From Deinococcales bacterium (GTDB lineage: Bacteria > Deinococcota > Deinococci > Deinococcales > JAAFIG01), in NCBI GenBank assembly GCA_025352125.1, contig JANXTZ010000041.1:7756-71755 (forward strand): a stretch of DNA of 64,000 bases, read 5' to 3'. Shown in pieces: positions 1-64,000 of the stretch. Below the pieces are notes generated by a model. The model worked only from the letters and a program-made list of their open reading frames with translations, was not told where the DNA came from and did not search any database. The position numbers and the translations under genes were made by a program. Position 1 is the stretch's first letter. Each line of letters opens with the position of its first letter.

Positions 1-821
1 ATGTTGCGCAAAAACCGCGACTCGAGCGTTAGCGTTCCAACCGTTATTGTCAGCAGCATCAAACCCAACCAGGCGGCATAAACGCGGTCATAGGCGGCGT
101 TGTACTGAACGTAGATGGCGCTCGAGAAAGTGTCAAAGCGGGTCAGTGAAACCACGCCAAAATCGCCCAGAACATGCAGCGCAATCAGCAATGCGCCAGA
201 CAACCAGGCGGGACGCAATTGCGGCAGGATCACGCGCCAAAAGACTCGCCACTGTGACAATCCCAAACTCCGCCCAGATTCCTCGAGACTCGGGTCAAGT
301 CCGCGCAGGGCATTCCAGAGGTTTAAGAACAGGTACGGGAAACTGAACAGTGCCAGCACGCCGAGCGCCCCAAAATAACCTTCGGGTCTGGGAATATTGA
401 CATGAAGGAGTTTCTCGAGCACCCCGTTTTGACCTGTCGCAGCCAGCATGGCGTAAGCCCCAACGTAACCTGGAACAGCAAGCGGCAGAACACCAATCAA
501 AGTCAAAACACCTTTGGCGGCAATGTTGGTTCTGGCGGTCAACCAAGCCAGCGGCAATGCAATCACACTGGAAACCAGCACCACGCCCAACCCGAGCGCC
601 ACGGTGTTCAGCAGCAGCTCAAGGTTGCGAACCCGAAAAACAATCTCGAGCAAGTCTTTGGGGTTTGCCTCGAGCGCCCGCAAAATCAGGTATGCCAAAG
701 GAATCAGAACTGCCAGGCAGGCAAAAAGTGCTGGAATCAAAAAAGTTTTTGGGGCGGGACGACCCACCCGAGGTTTGAAGCTCGAGATTTTAACTTGATT
801 TTGAGAGGATGTGCGTTGCAT
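1..821 (-). CDS. ABC transporter permease, iron(III)/thiamine type (FbpB-like); N-terminal part only, runs off the left edge
   Basis: Absent from the ORF track because it has no stop inside the window. My own reverse-strand translation from the ATG (complement of 819-821) reads MQRTSSQNQVKISSFKPRVGRPAPKTFLIPALFACLAVLIPLAYLILRALE... with no stop down to position 1. It has several hydrophobic helices and an EAA-loop-like LEESGRSLGLSQWRVFWRVILPQLRPA, typical of MetI-type permeases. Confidence 0.8.
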   Translation of the reverse strand, partial: MQRTSSQNQVKISSFKPRVGRPAPKTFLIPALFACLAVLIPLAYLILRALEANPKDLLEIVFRVRNLELLLNTVALGLGVVLVSSVIALPLAWLTARTNIAAKGVLTLIGVLPLAVPGYVGAYAMLAATGQNGVLEKLLHVNIPRPEGYFGALGVLALFSFPYLFLNLWNALRGLDPSLEESGRSLGLSQWRVFWRVILPQLRPAWLSGALLIALHVLGDFGVVSLTRFDTFSSAIYVQYNAAYDRVYAAWLGLMLLTITVGTLTLESRFLRN

Positions 822-901
822 ACGGATTGGGCGGTCGAATTCCGACTCGACCAATCAATTTACCAGGAATTAATGCGGGGCGTTTGACTGTGCGCTCACT
901 T

Positions 902-2809
902 TCATGTTGGAAGGTTTACGGCAGCTCGAGCGTGATGCGGCTGAGAAGTTCGAGAAGCAAGCAAGTACGGTGCGGCAAAAATCAAACCGCAGACGAAAAG
1001 CACCAATCCGATGTAAGCAGGCAGCAAATGCACAAAATTGGTGTAACCAACATGACTATGAATCCAAAGCGTCGCCACAAAACCAATTGAACCTGCCGCC
1101 AAAAGCAAGTACCACATCCAACGACGACCCCGTTCAAAACCCCACAAACTCGAGGTCAAAACCAGTAAACCCGTCGCCCAGAGCGCCCCACCAAAGCCGC
1201 TGCGATCATGGGCGATCAGTGCCAGCAATTTGGGGTTGGCTCGAGCCAGCGTTTCAGCACTGGTTTGCAAAAATAACAAATCTTCGGGCACGAAAACACG
1301 GATTGCACCGACCAATCCAATGGCAATGCCAGCCAGAATCAAGCCAACCCCGATCATCACAAACAACAATTGCCCGATCAAACCCAAACGCCAAACGGCA
1401 TCATTCTCGAGATCAAAACTTTCTACACTGCAAGCTTGAAATGGTGCGTAAATGCCAATCAAGAAAAAAGGCAGCAAGATCAGGCTGACCAATGCGTGCA
1501 AAACATCGAAATAACCGTAAAGAAAAAACAAGAAAAAACCGCTAAAACCAACAATCGCTGAGACTTGAATACTTTTTCGCGCCCAGTGCAAACCATTGCG
1601 CACACCAAAAAACGCCAATGCAGCAAACATCAAGCCCGCCGAGATCATGGTGCCCGAGAGCGTCACACGGTCATGACGCAAGAAATCAAGCAAGAACGGA
1701 TTAACACCCTCGAGTACCGCTCGAGACACCCCTAAAAAAGATTCATCGTAAGGCAGGGTGGCTCGAGTGATCCCGACGATTGCCACGACAATGCCAGCAA
1801 CGACCATGCCCAGACCAAACAAGCACAAGCAAATCCAAGCTGTGTTGCCCGAGGTGGTTTGGGCTGAATAATTTGTCAGGGCGTTGATGCGTTTGACCAA
1901 ACCTGGACCTGAGAACACCAAACCCGCATGAATTGCCACCAAATCGGCTGAGGCTTCAAAAAAATCTCTTGCGTCTCGAGGTTGAAACACGCCGCCAGCC
2001 GCAATGATCGGGGCGTTGGTGATGGTTTTGAATTGTTGTAAATCTTTGAGCGCAACAGCCTGAAGGCTCGGATTGGTCTGCACCTGACCAGCTTTGAAAA
2101 GACCATCAAACATCACAAAACCTTGCACACCAACTCCGAGCAGCGCATTCACCCATTGGGTTTTGTCGGCTTGTGAAAGCTCGAGCGGCAGCACCGCCAG
2201 CATCGGAAGCGAACAAACTCGAGTGAGCCGCGCAAAGTGTTCACAGCATTTCTCGAGTGAGCGCAATTTGCCATTTTCATCCAGAGGCGGCATCAGGCTA
2301 AACGCATGAACCTGCTTGGCAAGACCTTCAATAACACGGCTTTGCGCTAAAACATCATCGTTCCAGGCTACTCGAGCCATCAGGCGAAGATGAGGGTTGT
2401 TGTTTTGGCTGACACGCTCAATGGCTGTTTTGAGGTCAAGGCTGGCAACAAGCGAATAACGAATGGATTGTGTCTCGAGGTCACGTTCTACAGCATCAAG
2501 ATCACCCGAACCTGCAAGGCTGACCGCACCAAATTCGATCAATCCAACCCCAAACCGCGACAAGGCATTGATTGCCAACACGTGCGCGTCCAAACCTGCC
2601 GCCAGCACAACCCGAGATTGACATTCCAAACCCAAAAAACAAATATTTGCTTGGGTTGGACGCATGTGTCCAACAAATTCGATCAAGAGTTGCCCTGGTT
2701 TACCTCGTGCCAAAAAACCAATCGTTCCAAGGGTCAAGTCTCGAGCTTGATGGGCTGGAAACCGAAACAAAATATGGCGAAAAATATTTTGATATGACCA
2801 GTCAGGCAT
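902..2809 (-). CDS. Dihydroorotate dehydrogenase-like TIM-barrel domain fused to a C-terminal polytopic membrane domain
   Basis: 635-aa ORF. The N-terminal ~320 aa resemble class-2 PyrD (LGLECQSRVVLAAGLD..., PIIAAGGVFQPRDARDFFEASADLVAIHAGLVFSGPGLVKRI). The C-terminal ~300 aa form about 8 hydrophobic helices. Confidence 0.7.
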   Translation of the reverse strand: MPDWSYQNIFRHILFRFPAHQARDLTLGTIGFLARGKPGQLLIEFVGHMRPTQANICFLGLECQSRVVLAAGLDAHVLAINALSRFGVGLIEFGAVSLAGSGDLDAVERDLETQSIRYSLVASLDLKTAIERVSQNNNPHLRLMARVAWNDDVLAQSRVIEGLAKQVHAFSLMPPLDENGKLRSLEKCCEHFARLTRVCSLPMLAVLPLELSQADKTQWVNALLGVGVQGFVMFDGLFKAGQVQTNPSLQAVALKDLQQFKTITNAPIIAAGGVFQPRDARDFFEASADLVAIHAGLVFSGPGLVKRINALTNYSAQTTSGNTAWICLCLFGLGMVVAGIVVAIVGITRATLPYDESFLGVSRAVLEGVNPFLLDFLRHDRVTLSGTMISAGLMFAALAFFGVRNGLHWARKSIQVSAIVGFSGFFLFFLYGYFDVLHALVSLILLPFFLIGIYAPFQACSVESFDLENDAVWRLGLIGQLLFVMIGVGLILAGIAIGLVGAIRVFVPEDLLFLQTSAETLARANPKLLALIAHDRSGFGGALWATGLLVLTSSLWGFERGRRWMWYLLLAAGSIGFVATLWIHSHVGYTNFVHLLPAYIGLVLFVCGLIFAAPYLLASRTSQPHHARAAVNLPT

Positions 2810-2855
2810 GACTACTCAAAGCTTAACTCGAGCAACAACTTCAAGTGTCCCATAC

Positions 2856-3809
2856 TCAATATCCCTTCTCGCGGCTGACCAGATTCTCGAGCGTCTCCCC
2901 TGCCACAAACTTTTCGGCATTGCGCTCCAGGAGCGCATTGGCTTTGCCAATCAAATTGGGTCCACCGCCAGCAATGTGCGGCGTGAGAAGGCAGTTCTCG
3001 AGTGACCAGAGTTTGGAATCGCTGGGCAATGGTTCAGTTTCGGTCACATCCAAAGCCGCGCCGCCAATTTGATGATTCTCGAGTGCCGCAACCAGGGCAT
3101 TTTCGTCAATTGCACTACCGCGTCCGACGTTCACAACCCAAGCTCGAGGGCTTAAAAGTGCGAGTCGCTCTTTGTTCATGATGTGTTGGGTGGCTGGCGT
3201 GTCGGGCAGCACCATGATGACGGCATCGGCGCTGGGCAAGACCAAATCCAGGTCTTCGATGGCGTGCGTGACAAAACCTTCACGGTCGCCAGAAGTGTTG
3301 GCAACACCCTCGACGCTCGCACCAAACGGTTGAAGTCGGTGCGCAATCTCGAGTCCAATCGCGCCCATGCCCAGAATCAGCACGTTCGCCCCCTCGAGCG
3401 TCATCAGTTGCGTGCTGGGGGCGTTGACGGCTTGGTTGTAGAAGGCTTTGTCCCAACTTTTGGCGGTCTGGTGGTCGCGGTGCAGGTGCATTCGGCGCAC
3501 AGCACTCAGCAGTAAAGTCACGGCGAGTTCGGCGGTGGGCGCGTCGTGCAAGCCCTTGCCGTTGGAAACCATGATGCGACCCGAAGGGTTCAGATCGAGC
3601 ACGTGGTTGATCCCAGCCGTGAAGGTTTGAACCCATCTCAAACTTGGCATCTCGAGCAATGGCGCTAGACCTTTGCTGGTGATGCCCCACACGACCAGAC
3701 CTTCGGCGTCAAGCCCTTCCAGGCTTTCATGTCGGTTAAAACGCACAACCTCGAGTGGAAGTTCTGGAAGTTCCCAGGTGACGGAATCGGGGATCAGGAT
3801 TCTAGGCAT
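2856..3809 (-). CDS. D-isomer-specific 2-hydroxyacid dehydrogenase family (NAD-binding)
   Basis: 317 aa with Rossmann motif ILGMGAIGLEIAHRL, plus VNVGRGSAIDENALVAAL and LDVTETEPLP...LLTPHIAG family signatures. Confidence 0.85.
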   Translation of the reverse strand: MPRILIPDSVTWELPELPLEVVRFNRHESLEGLDAEGLVVWGITSKGLAPLLEMPSLRWVQTFTAGINHVLDLNPSGRIMVSNGKGLHDAPTAELAVTLLLSAVRRMHLHRDHQTAKSWDKAFYNQAVNAPSTQLMTLEGANVLILGMGAIGLEIAHRLQPFGASVEGVANTSGDREGFVTHAIEDLDLVLPSADAVIMVLPDTPATQHIMNKERLALLSPRAWVVNVGRGSAIDENALVAALENHQIGGAALDVTETEPLPSDSKLWSLENCLLTPHIAGGGPNLIGKANALLERNAEKFVAGETLENLVSREKGY

Positions 3810-3954
3810 GGGGTGATTCTAACGCGAGAAAGGTAGTTTGGACTTCAAGTTTTTCATGCTGGCGCGTTACACTGCGCCTCGGGTTGTAGCCCCAAGTTAG
3901 ACCAGTCAATCGAATTTCTTCTCGAGCAACACTCGAGTTCTCCCGAGGTAAACC

Positions 3955-4938
3955 ATGAAAAAACCGTTGTTGTATTTATTCACCGCCGTTTTACTTTCAC
4001 CCATGGCTTTATCGCAAAATGCGGTGACCAAAATCAAAGTCGGTTTGGGTTACTTGCCAGACGTGCAATTTGCGCCGTTTTACCTCGCCGAAACGAGCGG
4101 GGCGTACAAAAAAGCTGGTTTTGAGGTCGAGTTCCAGCATGGTTTCACCAACGAGTTGTACCCGCTGCTGGCGGCTGGCAAGCTCGATTACGTGGTTGCC
4201 GACGCCGAGGATGTGGTCTTGTTGCGCTCGGAAAATGCCAAAGCCGCGCCGTTCAAGTACATCATGGCATTGTATCAAAATGTGCCAAATGCGCTGTTCA
4301 GCAAAGCCGAAAAAAATATTAAAACCATCAAAGATTTAAAGGGCAAGACCATCGGCATTCCAGGCAAGTACGGCAACTCCTGGACGAGCCTGCAAGCGAC
4401 CCTCAAAGCCGCCAAACTCAAAGAATCTGACGTGAAGATTCTCGAGATTGGTTTCACCCAACTCGAGGCTGTCGTGGCGAACCGTGTCGATGTGGCAATG
4501 GGCTTTATCAACAACGAACCCGTCAAAGCCGCCGCGCAAAATATTAAGTTAAACGTCATCCTCGCGGCAAAGTACAACCGTGCCCCAGGCGTTGGCGTGA
4601 TTACGACAGATGCGAACCTCGAGAAACCAGAATTGGTCAAGGCATTCTTGGCGGCGAGCCAGGCTGCAATGGTCACGACCATCAACACGCCAAAAATCGC
4701 GTTTGAAGCCAGCAAAAAATACGTGCAAAACCTGGGCGACGAGGGCATGAAGGTGCTCGAGGCGAGCATTGGGTTGTACCAAAGCCCATTCACCCAAGCC
4801 GAGGGAATTGGTTTCAGCAACCCGAACGGCTGGCAGAGCGCGATTGATCTTTTAAAATCGGTTGGTCGCCTGCCAAAACCTGCAGGACGCAGCACGTTTT
4901 ACACGAACATTTACCTGAAAAACGTTCAGGCAAAATAA
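3955..4938 (+). CDS. ABC transporter substrate-binding protein, NMT1/THI5-like (NitT/TauT family)
   Basis: 327 aa with an N-terminal signal peptide (MKKPLLYLFTAVLLSPMALS). KIKVGLGYLPDVQFAPFYLAETSGAYKKAGFEVEF is typical of the family. Confidence 0.8.
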   Translation: MKKPLLYLFTAVLLSPMALSQNAVTKIKVGLGYLPDVQFAPFYLAETSGAYKKAGFEVEFQHGFTNELYPLLAAGKLDYVVADAEDVVLLRSENAKAAPFKYIMALYQNVPNALFSKAEKNIKTIKDLKGKTIGIPGKYGNSWTSLQATLKAAKLKESDVKILEIGFTQLEAVVANRVDVAMGFINNEPVKAAAQNIKLNVILAAKYNRAPGVGVITTDANLEKPELVKAFLAASQAAMVTTINTPKIAFEASKKYVQNLGDEGMKVLEASIGLYQSPFTQAEGIGFSNPNGWQSAIDLLKSVGRLPKPAGRSTFYTNIYLKNVQAK

Positions 4939-4949
4939 AAATCTCGAGC

Positions 4950-4979
4950 AACCGTGAGTGCCGATGCTCACGGTTTTTT
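4950..4979. terminator. Rho-independent terminator between the convergent SBP gene and purU
   Basis: AACCGTGAG-tgccgatg-CTCACGGTT stem-loop followed by TTTT on the + strand. It abuts the purU stop codon on the other side. Confidence 0.65.
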
Positions 4980-5872
4980 CAAAACACCACGGTTTTGTTC
5001 TGATGCACCAAAACCCGATCCTCGAGATGGGCTTTGACCGCCCTGGCGAGAACGTTGCGTTCAATGTCGCGCCCAATGCGGGTCAAAGCTTTCACATCGT
5101 CGCGGTGCGAAACCCGGGCGACATCTTGTTCGATGATCGGTCCCGCGTCGAGTTCTGAGGTCACGTAATGGGCGGTCGCGCCGACCAATTTGACCCCCCT
5201 GGCAAGGGCACTTTTGTACGGATTCGCGCCAACAAATGCGGGCAAGAAACTGTGGTGAATGTTGATCACGGGCATCTGGGTGTTCTCGAGAAAATCGCCC
5301 GAAAGAATTTGCATGTAACGCGCCAAGACCGCAAAATCGGCGTTGCCCTTTAACAACTCGAGAATTTTTTGCTCACTGGCGGTTTTGTCATTTTTTTCGA
5401 CTGGCACGTAATGAAATGGAATGCCAAAAGTGCGCACGTCAGGCTCGAGGTCTTGGTGGTTGCTGATGACAAACGGTATCTCGGCGTCGAATTCGCCGCG
5501 CCGCACCCGCCAGAGTAAATCCATGATGCAGTGATCGTATTTGCTGCACAAGATTGCCATGCGTTTGGGTTCAGAGGCGTACCAGACTTTCCAGTCCATG
5601 CCAAACGGTGTGGCAACGACTTCGTGAAAAGTTTTCTCGAATTGGGCTTTGGTCAAGTCCAGTCCCTCGAGGTGGAATTCTTGGCGCATAAAGAATGTAC
5701 CGCCTTCAGGATCGGTGCTGTGCTGGTCGCTGGAGATGATGTTGGCATTGTGGCTGTACAAGAACTGCGAGACGGCGGCGACGATGCCGCGCCGGTCTGG
5801 GCAGGAGATCAACAACCTTGCGGTGTTGGGGCGGGCGTAGGCTTTGGTGGTTGGTGTGGCGTCTGGTTGCAT
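4979..5872 (-). CDS. purU: Formyltetrahydrofolate deformylase
   Basis: 297 aa with an N-terminal ACT domain ([34 protein letters not shown]) followed by a formyltransferase domain ([18 protein letters not shown]). Confidence 0.9.
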
Positions 5873-6010
5873 CGATGTACAGTTTAACCCGTGGCTTTGA
5901 TTCGCCCGAGTATGTCAAGTTTTAACGACTTTTTGACAAGTATGCTTGACAAAAAGCCAAGTTTGATTTACATTGATGTCAAGCAACATTGACACCTCGA
6001 GATTCCAGAT

Positions 6011-6226
6011 GTGTCGAAAGGGCATTTCATGAACAGTGTTCAAATCAACCAGAAACTCGAGCAATTTCGCCGTGAGGCAACAATTCAAAATGCACTGGGC
6101 GAAATTCGTCGTCAGCACTTCAACACACTCAAAACTGCTGCTCGAACCATGCTGCTCGAATTGTCTGCACTGACCATCGGCAGCCTCGAGATGCCTGGCA
6201 ATGCACAGGTGCAAAAACATGTTTGA
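6011..6226 (+). CDS. Small hypothetical protein (71 aa from GTG 6011, or 65 aa from ATG 6029)
   Basis: The ORF stop (6224-6226) overlaps a candidate ATG (6219) of the downstream GNAT gene as ATGTTTGA, which suggests translational coupling. I recognise no homolog. Confidence 0.3.
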   Translation: MSKGHFMNSVQINQKLEQFRREATIQNALGEIRRQHFNTLKTAARTMLLELSALTIGSLEMPGNAQVQKHV

Positions 6227-7244
6227 GCTTGAACACCGCACCGCAAAAACCGTGTCTGAAACCGAAATTCGAGAATTCACCGCCCTTGCCAATGAATTGC
6301 GCAAGGAAACACAACCGGACGACCCACCGAGTCAAGCCGAAGTGCGAATCCAAGAGTTCAAAAACTTGCCCGATTTTGTCGAGGTTCACATCTGGCTTGC
6401 CACGGAGAACAACGCCGCCATCGGTTTTGCAAACCTGCAAATCGTACACTTGCCCGACAATCAGCACATGGCGCAATTCAACATTCAGATTCTTGCCGAG
6501 CACCGCAACAAAGGTCTGGGAAAAACGATCCTTAAAAAAGTGTTCGACACCGCCAAAAACGCAAATCGAAGCCTGCTCATTGCCATGAGTCACGACAAAA
6601 TTCCAGCCGGCGAAATCTTTCTCGAGCATTACGGATTTACGCGTGGCATGGAAACCAAAGTCAGCCAGTTGAGTGTCTATGAATTCGAGTCTGACAAACT
6701 CGAGCACTGGATCAACGGTGGTCAAACCCGAGCTTCTGATTACGTTCTGGGAAGTTGGAACGGCGCAATCCCAGAGAATGAACTTGCCGCTTTCGCCGTA
6801 CTGATGGATGTCATGAACACCCAACCCAAGGGTGACCTCGAGATGGAAGACGAGCATCTCTCGCCCGAAGTCATTCGTGACCTGGAAAAAGTCAAATTTG
6901 GTTCTGGTGGAAAGCGGGTCATCAGTTACGTCAAGCACCGCACAAGTGGCAAATTCGCAGGTTACACCGAACTGGAGTGGCATCCAACACGTGCCAGCAT
7001 CGTGACCCAACAGGCGACCGGCGTCAATCTTGAACATCGAAACATTGGGCTTGGACGCTGGCTGAAAGCCGCGAACCTTAAAGAAATGCTTGCCATGAAC
7101 CCGGAGGCAAAATTTGTCAGAACCGGCAACGCCAACGACAATGCCGCCATGCTCAAAATCAATCTCGAGCTTGGATTCAAACCGTATTTCGCCTCGACAG
7201 TCTGGCAGGGCAACACGGACACCATCTTTGAGAGACTCGCATAA
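6201..7244 (+). CDS. GNAT family N-acetyltransferase, possibly two tandem GNAT-like halves
   Basis: 347 aa with the acetyl-CoA motif region ILAEHRNKGLGKTILKKVF. Start is ambiguous (ATG 6201 or ATG 6219). The longer antisense ORF 6129-7367 has no recognisable features. Confidence 0.75.
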   Translation: MHRCKNMFELEHRTAKTVSETEIREFTALANELRKETQPDDPPSQAEVRIQEFKNLPDFVEVHIWLATENNAAIGFANLQIVHLPDNQHMAQFNIQILAEHRNKGLGKTILKKVFDTAKNANRSLLIAMSHDKIPAGEIFLEHYGFTRGMETKVSQLSVYEFESDKLEHWINGGQTRASDYVLGSWNGAIPENELAAFAVLMDVMNTQPKGDLEMEDEHLSPEVIRDLEKVKFGSGGKRVISYVKHRTSGKFAGYTELEWHPTRASIVTQQATGVNLEHRNIGLGRWLKAANLKEMLAMNPEAKFVRTGNANDNAAMLKINLELGFKPYFASTVWQGNTDTIFERLA

Positions 7245-11946: not shown

Positions 11947-13014
11947 ATGCACAAAACCATTATTGTTGCGCTCAGCTCGAGCCTACTCGCCATTTGCGCA
12001 CTCGTCGCCACCTCAAGCCAAGCCGCCACCCAAAGCCTGACCGTCTACTCGGGGCGGTCATCGGGACTGGTTGACCCCATCGTGCAACAGTTCAAGAAAG
12101 ACACTGGCATCGATATCAAAATCCGTTACGCCACCGATGCCGCGCTGTTCGCCACGCTCGAGGAGGAGGGCGCACGCAGTCCCGCCGACGTGTACTGGGT
12201 GAATACGGCGGGAACGCTGGTCAACGCCGCCAAAAAAGGTTTGTTCGCCAAACTGCCAGCCAGCATTCTCAAACGCCCCGCCGAGTTTGTGCCCAAAAGT
12301 GGACTCTGGACGCCGCTCTCGGCACGTTTTCGCGTGGTCGCCTTCAACCCAAAGACCGTCAAGGACACTGAACTTCCCCAAACCGCACTCGAGATGCCCA
12401 AGCTGACCAAATTCAAGGGACGCATCGGTTGGACTCCCGTTTACTCGAGCTTCCAAGATTTTATCACCGCCATGCGCAGCGTCTACGGAGAGACAAAAGC
12501 CAAAACCTGGCTTCTCGAGATGAAAAAACTCGAACCCAAAGCCTATCCAAACAACACCGCCATGCTCGAGGCGATGCAGGCGGGCGAAATTGACGTGGCA
12601 CTGACCAACCATTATTACATTCAAAAAATCATCGCTGGCGTGCGCGAGGGCGAATTTGAGGGCACAGCCGAGGAGAAAGAAAAAACAACCGCGCCAAAAC
12701 CAGACATTATCGGCACGCATTATTTCAAGGCGGGTGATGTCGGCAACTTAGAGCTTGTGACTGGCGCAGGCATCCTCAAAACCAGCAAGAACGGCGCGGT
12801 CGCCACCAAATTCCTCGAGTATCTACTGAGCACCAAAACCCAGCAACTCACGACCAAAACGATTCTCGAGTACCCGGTGGTGAATGGTTTTGCGCTGCCT
12901 AAAACGTTGCTGCCCCTGTCTGAGGCAATCAAACGCAGTCCCAAAATTGATTTTGAAAAACTGGTGGACATTGACAACACCCTAAAATTGTTGCGGGACG
13001 TGGGCTTGCTGTAA
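11947..13014 (+). CDS. Fe(3+) ABC transporter substrate-binding protein (FbpA/AfuA-like)
   Basis: 355 aa with a signal peptide. LTVYSGRSSGLVDPIVQQFKKDTGIDIKIRY and ...DVALTNHYY... are typical of ferric-binding proteins. Confidence 0.85.
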   Translation: MHKTIIVALSSSLLAICALVATSSQAATQSLTVYSGRSSGLVDPIVQQFKKDTGIDIKIRYATDAALFATLEEEGARSPADVYWVNTAGTLVNAAKKGLFAKLPASILKRPAEFVPKSGLWTPLSARFRVVAFNPKTVKDTELPQTALEMPKLTKFKGRIGWTPVYSSFQDFITAMRSVYGETKAKTWLLEMKKLEPKAYPNNTAMLEAMQAGEIDVALTNHYYIQKIIAGVREGEFEGTAEEKEKTTAPKPDIIGTHYFKAGDVGNLELVTGAGILKTSKNGAVATKFLEYLLSTKTQQLTTKTILEYPVVNGFALPKTLLPLSEAIKRSPKIDFEKLVDIDNTLKLLRDVGLL

Positions 13015-13037
13015 ACCTCGAGCACCCGGTTCAATTT

Positions 13038-13118: not shown

Positions 13119-14429
13119 ATGAAACTCAAACCGATCTTTCTGCTGATCTTGACCGTGCTGGGTCTGTTCGGTTTTGCCCGAGGCGCGACCAGCACCATTC
13201 CTGGGGTCATCATCAAAATCGAGGGCGAAATTGACCCGAACCTGGCAGGCTTTTTGGAGCGTCAACTCGAGGAAGCCGCCAAACAAAACCGTCCGCTCGT
13301 GGTGCTCGACATTGACACGCCAGGAGGTCGGGTGGACAGCGCCATCAAAATGTCGGACGACATCATCAACTCGAGCGTTCCAACGATTGCGGTCGTGACC
13401 AACGCCTTCAGCGCTGGCGCGTTGATTGCCATGAGCGCCGAACAGGTCGTGATGCTGCCAGGTTCAGAGATTGGTGCGGCGCTGCCGATCTCGAGCGATG
13501 GCACGGCGATTCCTGGGCAGGTCGGCGAAAAAATCAACAGCGCCTTTCGCACCAAGTTTCGCAGCGTCGCCACCACCCGTGGACGCAACCCAGACGCCGC
13601 CGAGGGCATGGTCAACCCCAACAAGGTGATTCCTGGTTTAAAAGAAAAAGGCGAGATTTTAACGCTCACCTCGAGCGACGCAGTGAAGAACAAGATTGCC
13701 AATTTTGAAGCCAGAAATATTCAAGAGGCGGTGCAGGTCGCGGGTTTCTCGAACATCAAACTCGAGACGGTGCTGCTCTCTCCCGCCGAACAGGTCGGGG
13801 CGTTCTTGTCGCAACCCATCGTGGCGGGCATTCTGCTGGCAATCGGTGTGATTGGTATTTTGATCGAACTCTTGCACCCTGGCGTGGCACTGCCGGGCAT
13901 TGTCGGCGGAATCAGCCTGCTGGCGTACTTTGCGGGATCGTGGCTCTCAGGCAACGGTTCGAGCGTGGCGTTGCTGCTGTTGCTGGCAGGTCTGGGTTTG
14001 ATTGTCGCCGAAATTCTGTTTGTGCCTGGCTCAACCATCGTCGGGTTGCTCGGCGTTGTCAGCATTTTGGCAAGCGTTTACCTGCAATACGGCGACAAAT
14101 TCTGGCAAGTCGCCAGCGTCGGTTCAATCATTGGTGGTCTGGGATTGGCATTGATCATTTGGTTTTTGCCAACATCTTCGTTCGCCAGGCGTTTGTCCTT
14201 GCAAACCACCCTGACCGAAGGCAGCGCCAACTGGAATGCCAACGAAGCCCCAAAACTCGAGGGACGGTTTGGGGTTGCACTCTCCGACTTGCGCCCGAGC
14301 GGCATGGCAGACATTGAGGGCGAACGGGTTGACGTGGTCTCGAGCGGCGAATTTATCACGCTCGGCACGAAGCTCGAGGTGGTCAAGGTTGAAGGTCGGC
14401 GCGTGCTGGTCAAAGCCTTGAAGACTTAA
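13119..14429 (+). CDS. nfeD: NfeD-family membrane-bound ClpP-class serine protease
   Basis: 436 aa with a signal peptide, ClpP-like region (VVLDIDTPGGRVDSAIKMSDDI, FSAGALIAMSAEQVVMLPGSEIGAA), TM block and C-terminal OB-fold-like NfeD domain. Confidence 0.85.
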   Translation: MKLKPIFLLILTVLGLFGFARGATSTIPGVIIKIEGEIDPNLAGFLERQLEEAAKQNRPLVVLDIDTPGGRVDSAIKMSDDIINSSVPTIAVVTNAFSAGALIAMSAEQVVMLPGSEIGAALPISSDGTAIPGQVGEKINSAFRTKFRSVATTRGRNPDAAEGMVNPNKVIPGLKEKGEILTLTSSDAVKNKIANFEARNIQEAVQVAGFSNIKLETVLLSPAEQVGAFLSQPIVAGILLAIGVIGILIELLHPGVALPGIVGGISLLAYFAGSWLSGNGSSVALLLLLAGLGLIVAEILFVPGSTIVGLLGVVSILASVYLQYGDKFWQVASVGSIIGGLGLALIIWFLPTSSFARRLSLQTTLTEGSANWNANEAPKLEGRFGVALSDLRPSGMADIEGERVDVVSSGEFITLGTKLEVVKVEGRRVLVKALKT

Positions 14430-21040: not shown

Positions 21041-22357
21041 TTAAGGGATTTTTAGTGATAACCAAGTTTGAACTTTTTCTCGAGCATAGTCATGAGCATC
21101 CAGCAACATTTCTTCGAGCACCCATTCTGGTAGACAATCCAGTTCGTTCATGAGTTCAACAACATGTAACCGACAACTGACACAACTGCCCGCTTCATAC
21201 AATTGAAAAAGAGTTTTTAGGGCATTTGCTGAAGGGTTGGTTTCAATTACCTTGCGGGTTTGGACAATCAATTTCTCGCAATGGTCGTCGGATAAATCAA
21301 CCGTTAGACTCTCGAGTAGCTCCCAATCTTCTTGCTCGAAATTCAGTTCAAGCAAGTACATTCCTTGGCGCTGCATTTCTGGATTTCCCAAAAACTCGAG
21401 CGCAAGTTCTCGAATTCTGGAATCAGAAAACCACGACAGCGCTTGACAGGCAACCCAAACAACATCTTCGTTTTTATGACGACAAAGCTCGAGAAGCAAG
21501 GTGTAATCCAACGGGAACGGGCGTTCTGCAAAAATACTGAGCGCCCGTTCCAATTTTTTTACACCACGAATTTCAGGAATTCTTTGCGCCACACGAATAA
21601 GCGACTCCTCGCTCGCATCTTGTCCCCAAAACTCAAGAGACACTCGACCACCTCGAACACCTTTTTCAATTGCCCGAGCAGCCCATTCATACGGCAATTT
21701 TTCGTACCTTCGACCTTTACGTCTGGACTTCAAAGTCTTTCGACAAAACTCAAGGTATTCAGAAGCCTTCGGTTTGTTCAATTCTAGAAATGCTTGATTG
21801 ACAGCTTCTGCACCAAGCGATTCACTAAAATCCCGAACGTAATGCCGAGGTATCACATCTTGATCCTCCGTTCCTACCAATCCTCCAAAAAATCGGGAAA
21901 TAAACAGTAAACCTTTTAACCCATCAAGCGTGACAATTTCTCGTCCACTACGCCCATCGAAACCAGTTTTGACAGTTTCAACAAAATCTTTGTATAAAGC
22001 TTCTCGAGCCTTTGCCACACCTGCTTTTGCAAACTCGAGAATCAATTCTTTTGAAGGACGTTCATCTTCATCTGGAGGAATGGTTTGAAAAGCATTCAGG
22101 ATTTGGTTTTTCAAATCCTGCGAATCTTCAAAAACATCTAAAAGTTCTACAAAATACGGAGCTTTATTGTAGAAAAAGTGACGAGAATGTGCTAAATCTT
22201 TCATACAAGTCTCGAGAATAATTTCTTTGTACGGCATAGGATCATGCTTTTTCAAACACAAAATAGCGCGACCTAAACCTTGCTCCAGCGCTCGTTTAAA
22301 TTCGTCGGGGGTCAGTGGTTCTTTGGCGGCACGGATTTCTGGTCGTGCTTGGGGCAT
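21041..22357 (-). CDS. Hypothetical all-helical (HEAT/ARM-like repeat?) protein in AT-richer DNA
   Basis: 438 aa, Leu/Glu-rich, no TM and no catalytic motif I recognise. C-terminal ...YEAGSCVSCRLHVVELMNELDCLPEWVLEEML.... Confidence 0.6.
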   Translation of the reverse strand: MPQARPEIRAAKEPLTPDEFKRALEQGLGRAILCLKKHDPMPYKEIILETCMKDLAHSRHFFYNKAPYFVELLDVFEDSQDLKNQILNAFQTIPPDEDERPSKELILEFAKAGVAKAREALYKDFVETVKTGFDGRSGREIVTLDGLKGLLFISRFFGGLVGTEDQDVIPRHYVRDFSESLGAEAVNQAFLELNKPKASEYLEFCRKTLKSRRKGRRYEKLPYEWAARAIEKGVRGGRVSLEFWGQDASEESLIRVAQRIPEIRGVKKLERALSIFAERPFPLDYTLLLELCRHKNEDVVWVACQALSWFSDSRIRELALEFLGNPEMQRQGMYLLELNFEQEDWELLESLTVDLSDDHCEKLIVQTRKVIETNPSANALKTLFQLYEAGSCVSCRLHVVELMNELDCLPEWVLEEMLLDAHDYAREKVQTWLSLKIP

Positions 22358-23988: not shown

Positions 23989-23994
23989 GACTCG

Positions 23995-24023: not shown

Positions 24024-24037
24024 CGGGATTCTTAAGT

Positions 24038-24846: not shown

Positions 24847-26574
<1,728 letters not shown>

Positions 26575-45979: not shown

Positions 45980-46310
45980 ACCTCGAGATTCAAGTCTTGG
46001 AATTTGAGTTTATATTCTGTGTTGACTATCATTAAATTGATGGATTCGAAGTGGAAAATGCACACAAAATTACTTTGACTTAAGTACAAAAAAATTTAAA
46101 ATGATCTGATATAAACGCCAAAATCAGTACATTTTAGACCAAGTTTAGACTTGTTCAACAATGCCGCCCACAGAACAAAAATTCAGTCGATTTTCAGCTC
46201 GTCCCGTTATAATTAGAACTGTGTACAATTTGATGATGGAAGACTTAAAAACCAGCCGTCAAAACGAAAAATGGAAATCGCCAGAGTTCAAAATTTATGA
46301 AGGAGTTACC

Positions 46311-47739: not shown

Positions 47740-47780
47740 AATCTCGAGAGACATTTGATCGTCTCTCGAGATTTTTTTTA
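47740..47780 (+). terminator. Rho-independent terminator
   Basis: AATCTCGAGAGAC-atttgatc-GTCTCTCGAGATT followed by a T-run (8 consecutive T including the last stem base). Both arms contain CTCGAG. Confidence 0.85.
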
Positions 47781-52849: not shown

Positions 52850-53194
52850 GTGAACCTTGAAGCTCGAGTTGTGATTGCTTCCGAAGTGAATCTCCGCATC
52901 CTGTCAATTCGTGATGTGTCCGATGCGTTGGGCGCGGTTTATGGTGCAAGTGGTTTGTTGCTAACCGAAACCGAACTTTCACCAGAATTCTTTGATCTGC
53001 GTTCAGGAATTGCCGGAGAACTTTTTCAGAAATTCACCAACTATCAAATTCTCCTGGCAATTGTGGTGAACAATCTCGAGGTGTACGGCGAACGTTTTGG
53101 CGAACTGGCTTTCGAGCACCGAAACCACAAATTGATTCGCTTTTTTGATAATCTCGAAACTGCCAAATTGTGGCTTTTGAACCAAGCGAGTTAA
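52850..53194 (+). CDS. DUF4180-like protein
   Basis: 114 aa with a GTG start. ...PEFFDLRSGIAGELFQKFTNYQILLAIVV... matches my recollection of DUF4180. Confidence 0.65.
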   Translation: MNLEARVVIASEVNLRILSIRDVSDALGAVYGASGLLLTETELSPEFFDLRSGIAGELFQKFTNYQILLAIVVNNLEVYGERFGELAFEHRNHKLIRFFDNLETAKLWLLNQAS

Positions 53195-54864
53195 ACTTTT
53201 TTTGAAGCTCGAGTTTGGGTAAAAAACCTAGAGACCAAAGCACTGGATTGTTTCTCGAGCACTCCAGTTCTGACCTCAATTCGGTGTGACCAAGCGGCTC
53301 GGGTGGCATCCATTACACCACCCATTGCGCCGTTTTTACTCGAGTTTGCCCCAAACACCACGCGTTTCACCCGCGCCTCGAGAATTGCGCCCAAACACAT
53401 CAGGCACGGCTCGAGCGTCACGACCAAAGTGCATTCGGTTAAGTACGGCGTCTCGAGTTTTTGGCTTGCGTTTCTGATGACTTCAAGTTCGGCATGTCGG
53501 GTCATGTCGGAAAGCGCGAAGCTACGATTGCGTCCAACGCCGACGACCTCTCCTCGATACAAGATGACCGCACCAACTGGAACTTCACCCGCTTCAAAGG
53601 CTTCCTGCGCAAGCCCGAGCGCGTGTTTCATGGCGTCAATTTCAATATCTCGAGTCACACCAATTCGCACGTCAAGAATGGGCGGCTCGAGTCCAACATA
53701 AAGCACTTGTGAACCTTGCGCGACAACGGAAATGCTGTCACGGGTTTCTCGGGGAATTTTTTTGTCGATCAAAACGTCCGAAAGTTTTCGGGTTCCGCCA
53801 GAAAGTTGAATCTTATCTCCTGCGGCTCGGGTTCGCTGTATGGCGTTTGGGAACCTCGAGAAATCCAGGTTGCGAGGTTCTGTAGGGGTGAACACAAGGT
53901 TCACCCTTGTCACGAGATCGGTACGCACGTCTGAATTCGCAACTTTTAAAACTTCAAGTTTGCCGTTTTGCACAACGCCAACATGATCTTTTGGGAGTGA
54001 AACTCGAGTCACAACAGGATTCTCGAGTTTGCTGCGAATCTCTTCCAAGTGCGCGAAAGCAGCGTTTAAACCAGCATTCTCGAGTTGACGCCGAATTTGA
54101 CGGCGTTGCAAAACTTTTGGTTCGAGCGCCAGATTCGCCCAGGTTGGAATTTTTGCGGTCATTTCCTCGAGAAACGCATCTTCGTCTCGAGCCAAAGTGC
54201 CGTACCGTGCGAGTGATTCGGCGGTTTTGGGAAAGCGCTCGAGAAGTTTGGGCATGACCTCGAGACGAATCCAATTGCGGGTGTACGTCGGGTCGGTGTT
54301 GCTCGAGTCTTCGCGCCAGGTAAGACCGCGTTCAAGCAGATATTGCTCAAGCTCAAATTTTGAAATCTCGAGCAATGGGCGCAAAATCAAACCGCGTCGC
54401 AGGGGAATTCCTGTCGCTCGAGCCGTGCCGCGTAGGAGTTGCATCAAAACCGTTTCGGCGTTGTCCTCGAGATGGTGCGCTGTCAGAATGGCGCTCGAGT
54501 TTGTTTCCTTGGCAATCCGCGTCAAGAATTCGTATCTAATTTTTCGTGCGGCTTCCTCGAGACTCCAACCACGTTTGACCGCAATTTCTAGGATGTTCAC
54601 GCGTTCAGAAAAAAGCTGTACCTCGAGCTTTAGGCATGTCTCACAAACGAAATCCGCATCGAGACTCGAGTCTTCTCGAATTCCGTGATCCAAGTGCGCG
54701 ACTGAAAACGGAATGCCAACCTCGAGCATCAAATAAAGCAGAGCCATCGAATCTCGTCCACCAGAAACCGCCAGCAGCACAGCCACCAGCCCTATTTTTG
54801 GCTTTTGGTTTGCCAATTCCTCGAGTTTGGTTTTGATTTGATCTGCAAGCTTCACGCCTTGCAT
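53191..54864 (-). CDS. tilS: Bifunctional tRNA(Ile)-lysidine synthase TilS / tRNA adenosine(34) deaminase TadA fusion
   Basis: The N-terminus has the PP-loop LLAVSGGRDSMALL. The C-terminus has the CDA fold HAELEVIRNA...TLEPCLMCLGAI. I place the start at ATG 54864, because the longer track ORF overlaps the divergent hydrolase gene. Confidence 0.85.
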   Translation of the reverse strand: MQGVKLADQIKTKLEELANQKPKIGLVAVLLAVSGGRDSMALLYLMLEVGIPFSVAHLDHGIREDSSLDADFVCETCLKLEVQLFSERVNILEIAVKRGWSLEEAARKIRYEFLTRIAKETNSSAILTAHHLEDNAETVLMQLLRGTARATGIPLRRGLILRPLLEISKFELEQYLLERGLTWREDSSNTDPTYTRNWIRLEVMPKLLERFPKTAESLARYGTLARDEDAFLEEMTAKIPTWANLALEPKVLQRRQIRRQLENAGLNAAFAHLEEIRSKLENPVVTRVSLPKDHVGVVQNGKLEVLKVANSDVRTDLVTRVNLVFTPTEPRNLDFSRFPNAIQRTRAAGDKIQLSGGTRKLSDVLIDKKIPRETRDSISVVAQGSQVLYVGLEPPILDVRIGVTRDIEIDAMKHALGLAQEAFEAGEVPVGAVILYRGEVVGVGRNRSFALSDMTRHAELEVIRNASQKLETPYLTECTLVVTLEPCLMCLGAILEARVKRVVFGANSSKNGAMGGVMDATRAAWSHRIEVRTGVLEKQSSALVSRFFTQTRASKKV

Positions 54865-54878
54865 GATACGGTTTATCA

Positions 54879-55757
54879 ATGCCTGAAAATCTCTGGGAGG
54901 AACATCGTCTGAAGGTGGCTGACCTCGAGCTTGGTTTTTCGGTGTGTGGTTCGGGCGAGGTGTTGGTGCTGTTGTCGGGTGGTCCTGGCGACCCGTGTGA
55001 TTACTTGCGGGATGCACACCAGAATTTGACGACAGGTTTTACCTGCGTGGCATTTGACCAGCGAGGCACGGGAAAATCCAAACTCGAGCTTCAAAATACT
55101 GTGACCTTAAACGCCATGAAGTTTGTGGATGATCTCGAGGCGTTACGGCAGCATTTAAAACTCGAGAAACTTAATTTGCTCGGGCATTCTTGGGGCGCAA
55201 ACTTGGCAATGTTGTACGCCGCAGTTCATCCAACCCGAACTGGAAAAGTGGCTGCGATTGCGTCTGGTCCAATCAATCCTCTAATGCGGGCGGTGGCGGG
55301 TTCAAACGTGAAGCGGGCGTTCTCGAGCGAGGACATATCGGACTTTGCGGCACTGCGAGAACAGCAGCAAAAAGCGTTTGAATCGGGAAATCTCGAGCAA
55401 TTTCGGGCATTGCACCTTGAAAGCACGACCCGATTTTGGGCGCGAAACGCTATTTTCTCCAACTATGCTCGAGCGAAATTCAACGCGGGTTTTAACGCAG
55501 ACGATTTTAATCCAGTGGTGAACCGCGTGACATGGCAATCGTATTCAAGCTTGGGGCATGACAAAATGCTGTCCAACATCAGCGCAGATTTACTGGTCTT
55601 GTACGGCTTTCAAGACTTTGGATCAATCACTCAAGCGTACCTCATCCGCGAAGAAGTTCCGCACGCCAAACTCGAGTTTATCAACGATTGCGGGCATGTT
55701 CCGTGGCTCGAGCAAGCCGAAACATATTACGATGTGTTAACCAAATTTTTGAATTGA
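54879..55757 (+). CDS. Alpha/beta hydrolase (proline iminopeptidase-like)
   Basis: 292 aa with nucleophile elbow LLGHSWGA and C-terminal ...CGHVPWLEQ. Confidence 0.85.
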   Translation: MPENLWEEHRLKVADLELGFSVCGSGEVLVLLSGGPGDPCDYLRDAHQNLTTGFTCVAFDQRGTGKSKLELQNTVTLNAMKFVDDLEALRQHLKLEKLNLLGHSWGANLAMLYAAVHPTRTGKVAAIASGPINPLMRAVAGSNVKRAFSSEDISDFAALREQQQKAFESGNLEQFRALHLESTTRFWARNAIFSNYARAKFNAGFNADDFNPVVNRVTWQSYSSLGHDKMLSNISADLLVLYGFQDFGSITQAYLIREEVPHAKLEFINDCGHVPWLEQAETYYDVLTKFLN

Positions 55758-62795: not shown

Positions 62796-63289
62796 AATCT
62801 CGAGTTGCCACAATTGCACTCATCTTGATTTTCGGCACGGCGTTCGCCACGACATACGCCAAATTAAGCCTGGAGCAACAGGTCGAAAAAGCCGATGTGA
62901 TTGTCCGAGCCAGCATCAAACAAAAATCCCTGGAAACCCGATCTGGAAAAATCTGGACGGTGTATTCGCTCAATATTGCCAAATTTTACAAGGGCAGCTT
63001 GGACACGTTCAAAGACTCGAGCTTTGCCGTGTTTGACTCTGAAAAAGTCAAACTTGAGGGCGCACCACGATTTGCCCAGAATGATGACCTGTTCTTGCTC
63101 TTGTACACCAAAAGTTACGACAGCCCAATTGTTGGCTTCAGACAGGGCGCGTACAAAGTGCTTGAGGGTGCAAAAATTGTTGGCTTAGACAACAAACCCG
63201 TCATGATCGACACGGATGGCAAACCCACCGAAGCCACCACAGAAACGTTCACAAAACAACTCGAGACGTTGACAGCAGGTGCAAAATGA
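62792..63289 (+). CDS. Secreted hypothetical protein
   Basis: 165 aa with a signal peptide (MKSRVATIALILIFGTAFATTYA). ATGA overlaps occur at both its start (62792-62795) and its stop (63286-63289). Confidence 0.55.
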   Translation: MKSRVATIALILIFGTAFATTYAKLSLEQQVEKADVIVRASIKQKSLETRSGKIWTVYSLNIAKFYKGSLDTFKDSSFAVFDSEKVKLEGAPRFAQNDDLFLLLYTKSYDSPIVGFRQGAYKVLEGAKIVGLDNKPVMIDTDGKPTEATTETFTKQLETLTAGAK

Positions 63290-64000
63290 AAATCTCGAGA
63301 CTCGCTGGCATCATTATTCTGAGTTCCCTTGCCATTGGTGCACCCGTCACGTACTGGGTGATGACCAGCGACGGTACACCTGCCGATTTTGCCAAACAGG
63401 TGGACAATGCCTTTAACGCCTGGAGAGCCGTTCCAGCCACAACCTTAAAACTCGAGAAGAACAAAGACTCGAGCCTGCAATTTGCCTGGAATGTCGCCGC
63501 CGAAGACGTGCCAATCAACCCCGATGCCATCACGCGCACGATCCAAACCACCAGCGAAGACGCCAAAACCACGCGCACCACCGTCACCGTCAACCCAGAC
63601 CAATCTGAGAACCTCGAGGCTGGCTTGCTGGTCGAGGCTGGCTTGCGCTTGGGCGTGACCCTCGAACCGAGCATTGAGGGAAAGCGCGGCGTGGGCGAAG
63701 CTGAGGCAAACGCACTTCGCACCCAATTTGGGCAAACGGGCGACCTGAACGGCGACCAGAAAGTCAACTTGGACGACCTCGAAATTCTTGCCAGCAATTA
63801 CGGCAAGAAGGGTTTACCCAGCGTCAACTTGAACGGCGATTTCAACGGCGATGGAGTCGTGAACGATTCTGACCTTGAGATCATGAAAACAACCTACAGT
63901 TTCGAGATTGCGCCAGAAAAGAGTTTGACGCCAGAAAATCCTACGGCTCCGACCGCTCCAACAAAACCTGAAACTCCGTCCGCGCCGACAGCACCGACCG
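63286..64000 (+). CDS. Secreted protein with dockerin/EF-hand-like Asp-rich repeats and a PT linker; runs off the right edge
   Basis: Absent from the ORF track (no stop in the window). My translation reads MKISRLAGIIILSSLAIGAPVTYWVMTSDG...GDLNGDQKVNLDDLEILASNYG...GDFNGDGVVNDSDLEIMK...PENPTAPTAPTKPETPSAPTAPT. Confidence 0.65.
   Translation, partial: MKISRLAGIIILSSLAIGAPVTYWVMTSDGTPADFAKQVDNAFNAWRAVPATTLKLEKNKDSSLQFAWNVAAEDVPINPDAITRTIQTTSEDAKTTRTTVTVNPDQSENLEAGLLVEAGLRLGVTLEPSIEGKRGVGEAEANALRTQFGQTGDLNGDQKVNLDDLEILASNYGKKGLPSVNLNGDFNGDGVVNDSDLEIMKTTYSFEIAPEKSLTPENPTAPTAPTKPETPSAPTAPT

Follow-up and report, generated by a model that had tools for sequence, protein, structure and literature searches.

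The stretch analysed here, 64,000 nucleotides of contig JANXTZ010000041.1 from an uncultured Deinococcales bacterium, is called the window throughout, and its subject is the palindromic hexamer CTCGAG, the ordinary XhoI site. Self-trained gene calls placed 63 genes on 91% of the window, among them groEL, groES, nfeD and a peptidase M3 gene, and about 45 of the proteins were checked against Pfam. Exact CTCGAG was found 428 times in this sequence (guanine-plus-cytosine (GC) content 52.1%), both within genes and between them. This corresponds to 6.7 copies per kb with a mean spacing of 149 nt and a maximum gap of 738 nt, and 4.0% of the bases of the window lay inside the motif.

Abundance, codon independence and spacing of CTCGAG

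The mononucleotide composition predicted 16.9 copies, so the excess was 25-fold, and 100 dinucleotide-preserving shuffles gave a mean of 12.1 (standard deviation 3.3, maximum 24), or a 35-fold excess. CTCGAG ranked first among the hexamers and was followed by its own overlaps TCGAGC (181) and GCTCGA (172); the top hexamer unrelated to it reached 86 copies, and no other palindromic hexamer of the window had an observed-to-expected ratio (O/E) above 3. Markov nulls of high order (129 copies at order 3 and 348 at order 4) were discarded, since their sub-words were themselves made of the motif, and such expectations were uninformative because 61% of the TCGA and 86% of the CTCGA in the window came from CTCGAG itself. 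The original prediction of a hyper-iterated CTCGAG with roughly 400-500 copies was confirmed, the enrichment being real and stronger than first stated. The hand counts given with it (26 in positions 1-3150 and 20 in 30,190-33,075) were exact, and its coordinates held apart from a few that were 1-2 nt off. The enrichment was not a local artefact, as three pieces of the same genome beyond the window (L132-L134) carried 4.8-6.1 copies per kb.

According to the gene calls, 371 copies were coding (6.4 per kb), and the count within the gene sequences was 372, one further copy straddling a gene boundary. Intergenic DNA was denser than the genes: 56 copies were located in 5.8 kb of 44% GC (9.7 per kb), where a first-order Markov simulation expected 1.2 ± 1.1. 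The coding copies were divided among all three frames as CTC-GAG (236, or 64%), xxC-TCG-AGx (77) and xCT-CGA-Gxx (59), which left 136 copies off the Leu-Glu frame. An intergenic density at least equal to the genic one and the use of more than one coding phase had both been anticipated. CTCGAG filled 236 of the 336 Leu-Glu opportunities (70%), 77 of the 170 synonymous x-Ser-[Ser/Arg] opportunities (45%) and 59 of the 148 synonymous [SPTA]-Arg-[VADEG] opportunities (40%). Outside the motif, CTC made up ~14% of the Leu codons and GAG ~33% of the Glu codons. When synonymous codons were shuffled within genes, a null that retains the inflated codon counts as well as the protein sequence, 54 ± 7 copies (maximum 79) were obtained against the 372 seen, and codon-order shuffles gave 21 ± 4. 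The excess of CTCGAG is independent of codons and exists at the level of DNA.

The pressure for the site also appears to have reshaped the proteins. Leu-Glu was the most over-represented dipeptide of the window (336 seen, O/E 2.45; Glu-Leu 0.88), and Ser-Ser had an O/E of 1.69. For comparison, Leu-Glu had an O/E of 1.15 in Deinococcus psychrotolerans and of 1.6-1.7 in Meiothermus, and two CTCGAG-rich relatives at a greater distance gave 1.9-2.0.

The motif unit was the bare hexamer with weak symmetric flanks, AAN-CTCGAG-NTT. The preference for A at positions -3 and -2 amounted to 0.54 and 0.49 in intergenic and to 0.38 and 0.32 in coding DNA; past ±3 the flanks had background composition, and the commonest 10-mer was present in 9 copies. 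The one-mismatch neighbours of CTCGAG were found 3-40 times each. A slight excess was confined to the six transition neighbours (22-40), a pattern resembling a halo of mutations round a very large pool of sites: TTCGAG (36) and CTCGAA (40) were ~2-fold above expectation, and CCCGAG/CTCGGG were also enriched ~2-fold. Outside CTCGAG, the tetramer TCGA was at expectation (273 against about 250).

The sites were spaced more evenly than by chance. The coefficient of variation of the spacings was 0.835, compared with 0.993 ± 0.047 for random (Poisson) placement and 0.951 ± 0.044 for an opportunity-matched null, which places sites only where the synonymous and intergenic sequence really allows one (p about 0.001). 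Pairs 6-20 nt apart occurred at 0.61 of expectation, indicating a short-range repulsion, and 68 spacings of 40 nt or less were recorded against ~100 under Poisson placement and 83 ± 6 under the opportunity-matched null. The earlier impression that copies often come in close pairs was therefore reversed. No helical phasing of the sites at 10-11 bp was detected in the window. The even spacing suggests that what matters is one site per stretch of roughly 100-200 bp.

Individual sites, relatives and phage contigs

The following features of the window were considered individually:

24847-26502, minus strand: groEL, with 6 copies, all in-frame CTC-GAG; among the sparsest long genes (3.6 per kb), and holding the largest gap of the window
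13370-13375, plus strand: out-of-frame copy in nfeD, reading AAC-TCG-AGC (Asn-Ser-Ser)
13012-13022, plus strand: stop and motif TAA-AC-CTCGAG; the site is kept in the relatives L002, L003 and L007 while the flanking bases vary
45977-45987, plus strand: stop and motif TAA-AC-CTCGAG of the peptidase M3 gene
26567-26577, minus strand: groES stop and motif TAA-AC-CTCGAG
24809-24844, minus strand: four copies with an exact spacing of 10 bp (one helical turn), CTCGAG-AAAA four times on the groEL strand, between the groEL stop and the terminator hairpin
47743-47779, plus strand: hairpin resembling a terminator, with two copies (CTCGAGAGAC...GTCTCTCGAG) as the ends of its stem and then a T run, as read from the sequence directly
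53191-54879, minus strand: densest long gene, with 26 copies (15.4 per kb) and 23 Leu-Glu in 562 aa
21041-22357, minus strand: AT-rich open reading frame (ORF) of 438 aa, 43% GC, with atypical codon usage and 7 copies (5.3 per kb)

The ten Leu-Glu pairs of groEL were encoded six times by CTCGAG, three times by CTCGAA and once by CTTGAG, precisely as tallied before, and the copy in nfeD was likewise found to read as described. None of the eight Leu-Glu pairs in groEL of D. psychrotolerans was encoded by CTCGAG. The ORF at 21041-22357, searched in Pfam, NCBIfam and PADLOC, was without a match; it may be no recent arrival, or else sites build up quickly in acquired DNA. Its 7 copies, and the 8 copies in the toxin-antitoxin cassette at ~23400-24100, agreed with the earlier counts for these AT-richer genes. 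The cassette contained a PemK/MazF toxin with an upstream partner ORF (23417-24051, minus strand). The product of the densest long gene (53191-54879, minus strand) was a TilS-like PP-loop ATPase of the tRNA-Ile lysidine synthetase type, with a TilS_C domain, fused to a TadA/MafB19-type cytidine/adenosine deaminase domain.

A copy began 1-4 nt past the stop in 14 of 61 genes, when ~2.4 were expected at the intergenic density (Poisson p = 2e-7), and the statement that the motif often sits right after stop codons was thereby upheld. Examples were the stops at 13012, 14427, 45977, 26575 and 24847. In eight genes the copy began exactly 2 nt past the stop, giving TAA-AN-CTCGAG. This placement was limited to the own lineage of the window, with TAA-AN-CTCGAG conserved in L002, L003 and L007; among the more distant CTCGAG-rich relatives (L008-L010 and L135) it was present in 1 of 75 genes. 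The motif may have gained a secondary, lineage-specific role at the 3' ends of genes. The terminator stem of groEL in L010 and L135 was built like the hairpin at 47743-47779, as CCC-CTCGAG-loop-CTCGAG-GGG-Tn.

Orthologous sites were compared with five relatives of 78-86% nucleotide identity. Depending on the relative, 51-88% of the window sites were still CTCGAG, compared with 27-45% of background hexamers; at conserved Leu-Glu, 65-91% of the sites were kept, when CTC and GAG retained independently of each other would give 7-42%. Intergenic sites were kept in 64% of cases against 38% for background hexamers (Fisher p = 6e-4), and post-stop sites persisted while adjacent bases changed. These figures do not separate selection from drive, because an equilibrium occupancy of 70% lets re-creation look like conservation. 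In either case, the conservation shows a persistent directional force.

A scan with the NfeD protein over one genome per species matched only metagenome-assembled genomes (MAGs) of uncultured Deinococcales, at 82-96% identity, and the MAG names were taken by us to point to glacier-fed-stream studies. All of these relatives carried CTCGAG, at 3.7-7.2 copies per kb, and the earlier description of the genome as Deinococcus-like was upheld. MAGs of the clade found here included CAXTTL01, JAYVRX01, JANMUC01, JAYTKL01, JANLWR01 and GCA_965188805. The clade was further sampled over ~21 kb around groEL at falling GroEL identity:

L008, 524-kb contig: GroEL 89%, GC 61%, O/E 11.9; 23 intergenic copies against 1.0 expected
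L009, 5.08-Mb contig (ERZ26165376): GroEL 86%, GC 58%, O/E 16.5; 41 intergenic copies against 1.0 expected
L135, GCA_965188805: GroEL 84%, GC 54%, O/E 18.3; rank-1 hexamer
L010, Logan contig: GroEL 83%, GC 48%, O/E 23; rank-1 hexamer
L137, Allomeiothermus silvanus CP002042, 582902-604542: GroEL 80%, GC 63%, O/E 9.6; 53 of 62 coding copies in frame, intergenic copies at expectation
L139, Meiothermus rufus AUHY01000008: GroEL 79%, GC 63%, O/E 7.9; 49 of 55 coding copies in frame, intergenic copies at expectation
L138, Deinococcus aquiradiocola BMOE01000004: GroEL 80%, GC 70%, O/E 0.55; depleted
L011, D. psychrotolerans CP034183: GroEL 79%, GC 59%, O/E 0.3; depleted

The trait was present in all sampled relatives with a GroEL identity of at least 83%. 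Across 10 related loci with a GC content of 48-61% the O/E was 12-28, and in these loci, as in the window, CTCGAG was the most over-represented short palindrome and the rank-1 hexamer. This DNA-level trait marks a deep uncultured clade independently of GC content, and throughout the clade a strong and persistent force acting on DNA favours this very hexamer in duplex form, wherever the sequence can vary. In the cultured Thermaceae A. silvanus and M. rufus CTCGAG was also the commonest hexamer (2.6-3.2 per kb), and it encoded 47-60% of Leu-Glu, ~3-fold over synonymous shuffles. Their pattern is a true codon-pair bias, a different and weaker phenomenon, and possibly a forerunner or a remnant of the DNA-level trait. 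The two Deinococcus loci contained 2 (L011) and 4 (L138) copies in 21.6 kb, with 1 of 50 Leu-Glu pairs encoded as CTCGAG when synonymous shuffles gave 5.5. Such under-representation looks like ordinary restriction-site avoidance, the opposite of the situation in the sister clade.

Viral contigs were scanned for three clustered CTCGAG, which yielded at least 120 loci; 18 of the 109 listed loci of at least 3 kb had an O/E above 12. Seven IMG/VR contigs (L040, L107, L025, L080, L036, L079 and L099) contained 4-10 copies per kb. L040 (IMGVR_UViG_3300010354_016671), 14 kb long with a GC content of 57%, carried 73 copies and a head-tail connector gene. L040 and L107 were enriched in all frames with a median spacing of ~125 nt, and both (GC 57-58%) also avoided GGCC (O/E 0.11-0.15), as the window lineage does. 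Assignment of phage hosts by tetranucleotide correlation was not discriminating. If phages of the L040/L107 type infect the clade, a resident CTCGAG restriction enzyme is unlikely. It was also observed that L080 (GC 64%, 96 copies in 9.9 kb, with a portal gene) prefers the extended forms GCTCGAGC and AGCTCGAGCT, that the high-GC, CTCGAG-rich phage contigs L079 and L099 encode N6_N4 DNA methyltransferases, and that many high-GC viral contigs have a CTCGAG O/E of 4-17.

Known systems and possible explanations

The system closest to these observations is the highly iterated palindrome HIP1 of cyanobacteria, as the original prediction had proposed, and the frames, the density and the conservation of the sites bear this out. 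HIP1 and its variants are known in 15- to 300-fold excess at 300-2,700 copies per Mb, in all frames, conserved, and with cognate methyltransferases (PMC4390886, PMC5861425). Like HIP1 (GCGATCGC) and the alternate cyanobacterial HIPs (GGGATCCC, GGCGCC, RCCGGY, CAGGCCTG), CTCGAG is the most over-represented word of its genome, occupies non-coding DNA as well as every frame of coding DNA, and is conserved at orthologous positions beyond the conservation of codons. Different HIP motifs are used by different lineages, as is the case here. HIP sites are moreover spread quasi-periodically along the chromosome, at 10-90 kb. Several differences were also noted. The host belongs to Deinococcota and not to Cyanobacteria, and the motif is a 6-mer of 67% GC, when HIP1 is a GC-rich 8-mer. 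The density of ~6,700 copies per Mb in the window, and of 3,900-7,200 per Mb in relatives, is above the published HIP range. CTCGAG, unlike HIP1, is densest in intergenic DNA and is accompanied by a measurable excess of the encoded dipeptide. Cognate methyltransferases exist for HIPs (PMC4390886, PMC5861425); for CTCGAG they are known only in the related Thermaceae (PMC4752239). Strict membership of HIP1 fails, as the host is an uncultured Deinococcales bacterium and CGATCG had 0 copies in the window, and the motif is therefore called HIP-like. The functions suggested for HIP1 include a methyl-directed repair ratchet, a part in chromosome architecture and a methylation-dependent boost of natural transformation (PMC4390886; PMC5861425; 10.1101/2024.09.10.611283; 10.64898/2026.06.24.733823), and the matter is unsettled (PMC4390886; PMC5861425; 10.1101/2024.09.10.611283) three decades on, nearly all knowledge coming from one phylum. 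According to Xu et al., an abundance of the HIP kind was not on record outside cyanobacteria (PMC5861425). As the original prediction also stated, no description of CTCGAG hyper-iteration was known: none was found in the literature searched, with most subscription journals outside its coverage. The present case is apparently an undescribed second instance of the HIP puzzle, and the densest yet.

The uptake signal sequences (USS) of Pasteurellaceae are evenly spaced, uptake sequences influence the encoded peptides, and the DNA uptake sequences (DUS) of Neisseriaceae are used as inverted pairs in terminator stems. Even spacing and inverted terminator pairs were likewise found for CTCGAG (coefficient of variation 0.835; 47743-47779, L010 and L135), which is similarly over-represented both in genes and between them. 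It is clade-specific, as are the DUS, which occur as clade-specific dialects (PMC3630211). USS and DUS, however, are 9-12 nt long, non-palindromic and present at ~1 per kb, and their preferential uptake by a known receptor has been demonstrated; CTCGAG, with 6.7 copies per kb, is a palindrome of 6 nt with only weak flanks. Restriction-site avoidance and the word bias caused by Dcm/Vsr also concern palindromic, Type II-like words far off expectation, but the 25-fold enrichment of CTCGAG is of the opposite sign and its one-off neighbours are not depleted.

Orphan CTCGAG methyltransferases of Thermaceae and Nocardia recognize the same sequence, and the Thermaceae enzymes come from the same phylum. 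Active Type II N6-methyladenine (m6A) CTCGAG methyltransferases with no restriction partner listed were reported in Thermaceae (Blow et al. 2016, PMC4752239, supplementary file 4): M.Mru1279II of Meiothermus ruber (99.5% of CTCGAG methylated), M.Mch9957IV of M. chliarophilus (94.1%) and M.Mhy14884I of Marinithermus hydrothermalis (94.6%); no CTCGAG methylation is listed for M. (Allomeiothermus) silvanus (PMC4752239). A solitary CTCGAG methyltransferase is thus an established feature of the phylum. In Nocardia an orphan CTCGAG methyltransferase accompanies motif clusters in non-coding DNA near dnaA (PMC4752239), and this confinement to the replication origin is unlike the distribution of sites across the whole window. 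Genome-wide hyper-iteration has not been reported for the organisms with orphan CTCGAG methyltransferases.

It was proposed that CTCGAG, peculiar to this lineage and spread over its whole genome, is a palindrome of the HIP type and serves as a methylation-linked self tag read by a symmetric protein, and we consider the chances of this to be about even. We infer recognition by a protein, methylation and function from the pattern of the sites. A symmetric, sequence-specific protein would read the duplex 6-bp palindrome with a weak preference for AAN...NTT flanks, and the likeliest reader or writer would be a CTCGAG-specific N6-adenine methyltransferase like those active in Thermaceae, inherited within Deinococcota. 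At least one further component would turn the methylated site into something favoured. A directional force, either selection or a bias of conversion, repair or uptake toward CTCGAG, holds approximately one site per 150 bp. It suffices to fix synonymous changes in all three frames, and apparently amino-acid changes too; intergenic DNA free of constraint is filled first, with diminishing returns for nearby sites. The sites may tag self DNA for repair, recombination or transformation, which the even spacing fits. The narrower proposal, that the clade uses CTCGAG, probably m6A-methylated, as a self-DNA tag read in recombination, repair or natural transformation, is put forward tentatively and is held at clearly less than an even chance.

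Several results weigh against the methylation-linked self tag. About 45 proteins of the window were scanned with Pfam, those lacking a Pfam match also with NCBIfam and PADLOC, and every ORF of the window and of the loci was searched by regular expression for DPPY, NPPY and PCQ. None of these scans brought a methyltransferase, Vsr-like or restriction gene of the window to light. The Pfam gene lists of related loci, amounting to ~20 kb of further sequence from the same genome, ~60 kb from close relatives and ~80 kb from four CTCGAG-rich genomes at a greater distance, likewise had none. A listing of homologues of M.TaqI, whose query sequence was verified against PDB 1aqj, returned 120 matches listed, all of them close TaqI orthologues. 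No methyltransferase attributable to the clade was obtained from a search of 50%-identity representatives, a ranking by Leu-Glu richness and dipeptide likelihood, or a cluster look-up. Substitutions at lost and gained sites carried no methylation-type signature, the differences being at synonymous positions because of coding constraint. At an equilibrium occupancy of 70% of Leu-Glu, re-creation could mimic much of the conservation. M. ruber has an active CTCGAG methyltransferase and its congener M. rufus showed only the in-frame bias with no intergenic enrichment, while A. silvanus, with no CTCGAG methylation listed, had the same in-frame bias. A CTCGAG methyltransferase alone may not be enough for hyper-iteration. 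The suggestion of a solitary methyltransferase was supported indirectly, by the Thermaceae m6A enzymes (PMC4752239), and no such gene was found in the window or in the gene lists of related loci.

A Leu-Glu codon-pair (dicodon) or translational bias with no meaning at the DNA level would account for the 64% of coding copies that are in-frame CTC-GAG, and a bias of this kind does exist in the phylum (A. silvanus, 53 of 62 in frame; M. rufus, 49 of 55; intergenic copies at expectation in both). It is nevertheless exceedingly improbable here: intergenic DNA was the densest compartment in the window (56 against 1.2), in L009 (41 against 1.0) and in L008 (23 against 1.0), 136 out-of-frame coding copies filled 40-45% of their synonymous opportunities, and synonymous shuffles recovered 54 of the 372 coding copies. 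An intergenic count near expectation and shuffles reproducing the density, the two outcomes that would have reduced the pattern to a dicodon effect, both failed to appear, and on the intergenic and out-of-frame counts codon-pair bias was effectively excluded for the clade of the window. A dispersed mobile repeat, of the repetitive extragenic palindromic (REP) or miniature inverted-repeat transposable element (MITE) type, would match the high copy number alone, as would an artefact in which assembly or adapters brought in an XhoI site. The probability of either is negligible, given that conservation ends at the hexamer (commonest 10-mer 9 copies), that copies stand in frame within conserved genes such as groEL, and that the pattern recurs in about ten genomes assembled independently (NCBI, ENA, JGI and Logan). 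The bare hexamer, the in-frame copies and the independent assemblies effectively excluded a repeat or an artefact for the clade.

The sites could be a functionless by-product of repair or gene conversion that corrects near-cognates to CTCGAG, through a methyl-directed mismatch-repair ratchet of the Elhai type or a very-short-patch nicking enzyme. All frames and intergenic DNA were filled according to their freedom to change, phage contigs had an equal all-frame density, as if any DNA replicating there were converted, and repeated re-creation at 70% occupancy could look like conservation; still, we regard this origin as unlikely. A purely site-autonomous drive does not predict even spacing and depleted close pairs, and no such enzyme was found in the window or in the related-locus gene lists. 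A substrate of a Vsr-type enzyme would be depleted, but TTCGAG/CTCGAA and CCCGAG/CTCGGG were ~2-fold enriched. Very-short-patch repair in E. coli enriches its own site less than about 2-fold, far below the 25-fold seen for CTCGAG. A Dcm/Vsr-type signature was accordingly not supported. Improbable, too, is an uptake or transformation signal, by which competence or post-uptake recombination prefers DNA with CTCGAG and a molecular drive imports the sites. It would fit Deinococcus and Thermus being naturally competent, the over-representation in and between genes, which apparently affects the make-up of the proteins, the even spacing of the sites, and the paired copies as terminator stems known for DUS of Neisseria. 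DNA uptake by Thermus, however, is not considered sequence-specific. The uptake sequences known so far measure 9-12 nt, lack palindromic symmetry and are present at ~1 per kb, a 6-mer discriminates weakly per site, and the window held nothing bearing on competence; on the other side, CTCGAG is confined to a clade in the way that DUS dialects are (PMC3630211), and HIP1 boosts transformation and was proposed as an uptake signal (10.1101/2024.09.10.611283; 10.64898/2026.06.24.733823). It is quite improbable that CTCGAG is bound by an abundant protein of the nucleoid or of chromosome organisation and is selected so that the chromosome is covered at regular intervals. An even ~150-bp spacing with short-range exclusion and palindromic flanks with a weak AT preference, typical of a dimeric binder, would suit it; 10-11-bp helical phasing was absent, however, and no candidate protein was identified. 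The sites of known nucleoid proteins are degenerate, and no such protein is known to leave a 25-fold excess of an exact hexamer. Xu et al. favoured a role in chromosome structure for HIP1 (PMC5861425).

If CTCGAG is indeed a self tag, it would be the first system of the HIP/USS type outside cyanobacteria and proteobacteria and the densest known, with ~4% of the genome rewritten and the proteome apparently shifted toward Leu-Glu. It would have arisen independently of HIP1 and would offer a second natural experiment on such palindromes. CTCGAG provides an independent example with a different sequence, phylum and higher density, in which a DNA-level signal appears to shift the composition of the proteome measurably. 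Its clear phylogenetic boundary lets methyltransferase, repair or competence genes be matched to the trait. The density of CTCGAG is a simple signature for binning these organisms and their phages, and methylation and function are testable with standard reagents for the XhoI site.

Neighbouring genes and other word biases

A MazE-type antitoxin with a 102-aa partner was located at 27092-27735 (plus strand), adjoined by a 796-aa DUF87/HerA-like ATPase at 27739-30129 (minus strand) with weak PADLOC matches to mads_8 and HerA. The cluster at 31077-36745 (minus strand) comprised a Ser/Thr protein kinase, a 682-aa PP2C/SpoIIE phosphatase, an FHA-domain protein and a von Willebrand A protein, and is a eukaryote-like signalling module.

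GGCC was nearly absent from the window: 2 copies (39809 and 48033) were found against 294 expected, an O/E of 0.01, which was also 0.01 under an order-2 Markov model. A single copy was present in ~60 kb of close relatives (L002-L007), and none in L010 and L132-L134; L009 and L135 showed a partial avoidance (O/E 0.4), and L008, Meiothermus and Deinococcus showed none. The avoidance is phylogenetically narrower than the CTCGAG trait and far stronger than typical restriction-site avoidance. An avoidance this extreme (O/E 0.01) clearly indicates that word-level forces act in this genome. Many other palindromic hexamers, for example GAGCTC, GTCGAC, GGATCC, CAGCTG, CGATCG and TCCGGA, had 0-1 copies against 14-20 expected, and the O/E of CCGG in the window was 0.24. 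Words with CTAG, TATA or TAG were depleted 5- to 15-fold, which was explained by the lower-order depletion of TA/TAG (Markov O/E ~1).

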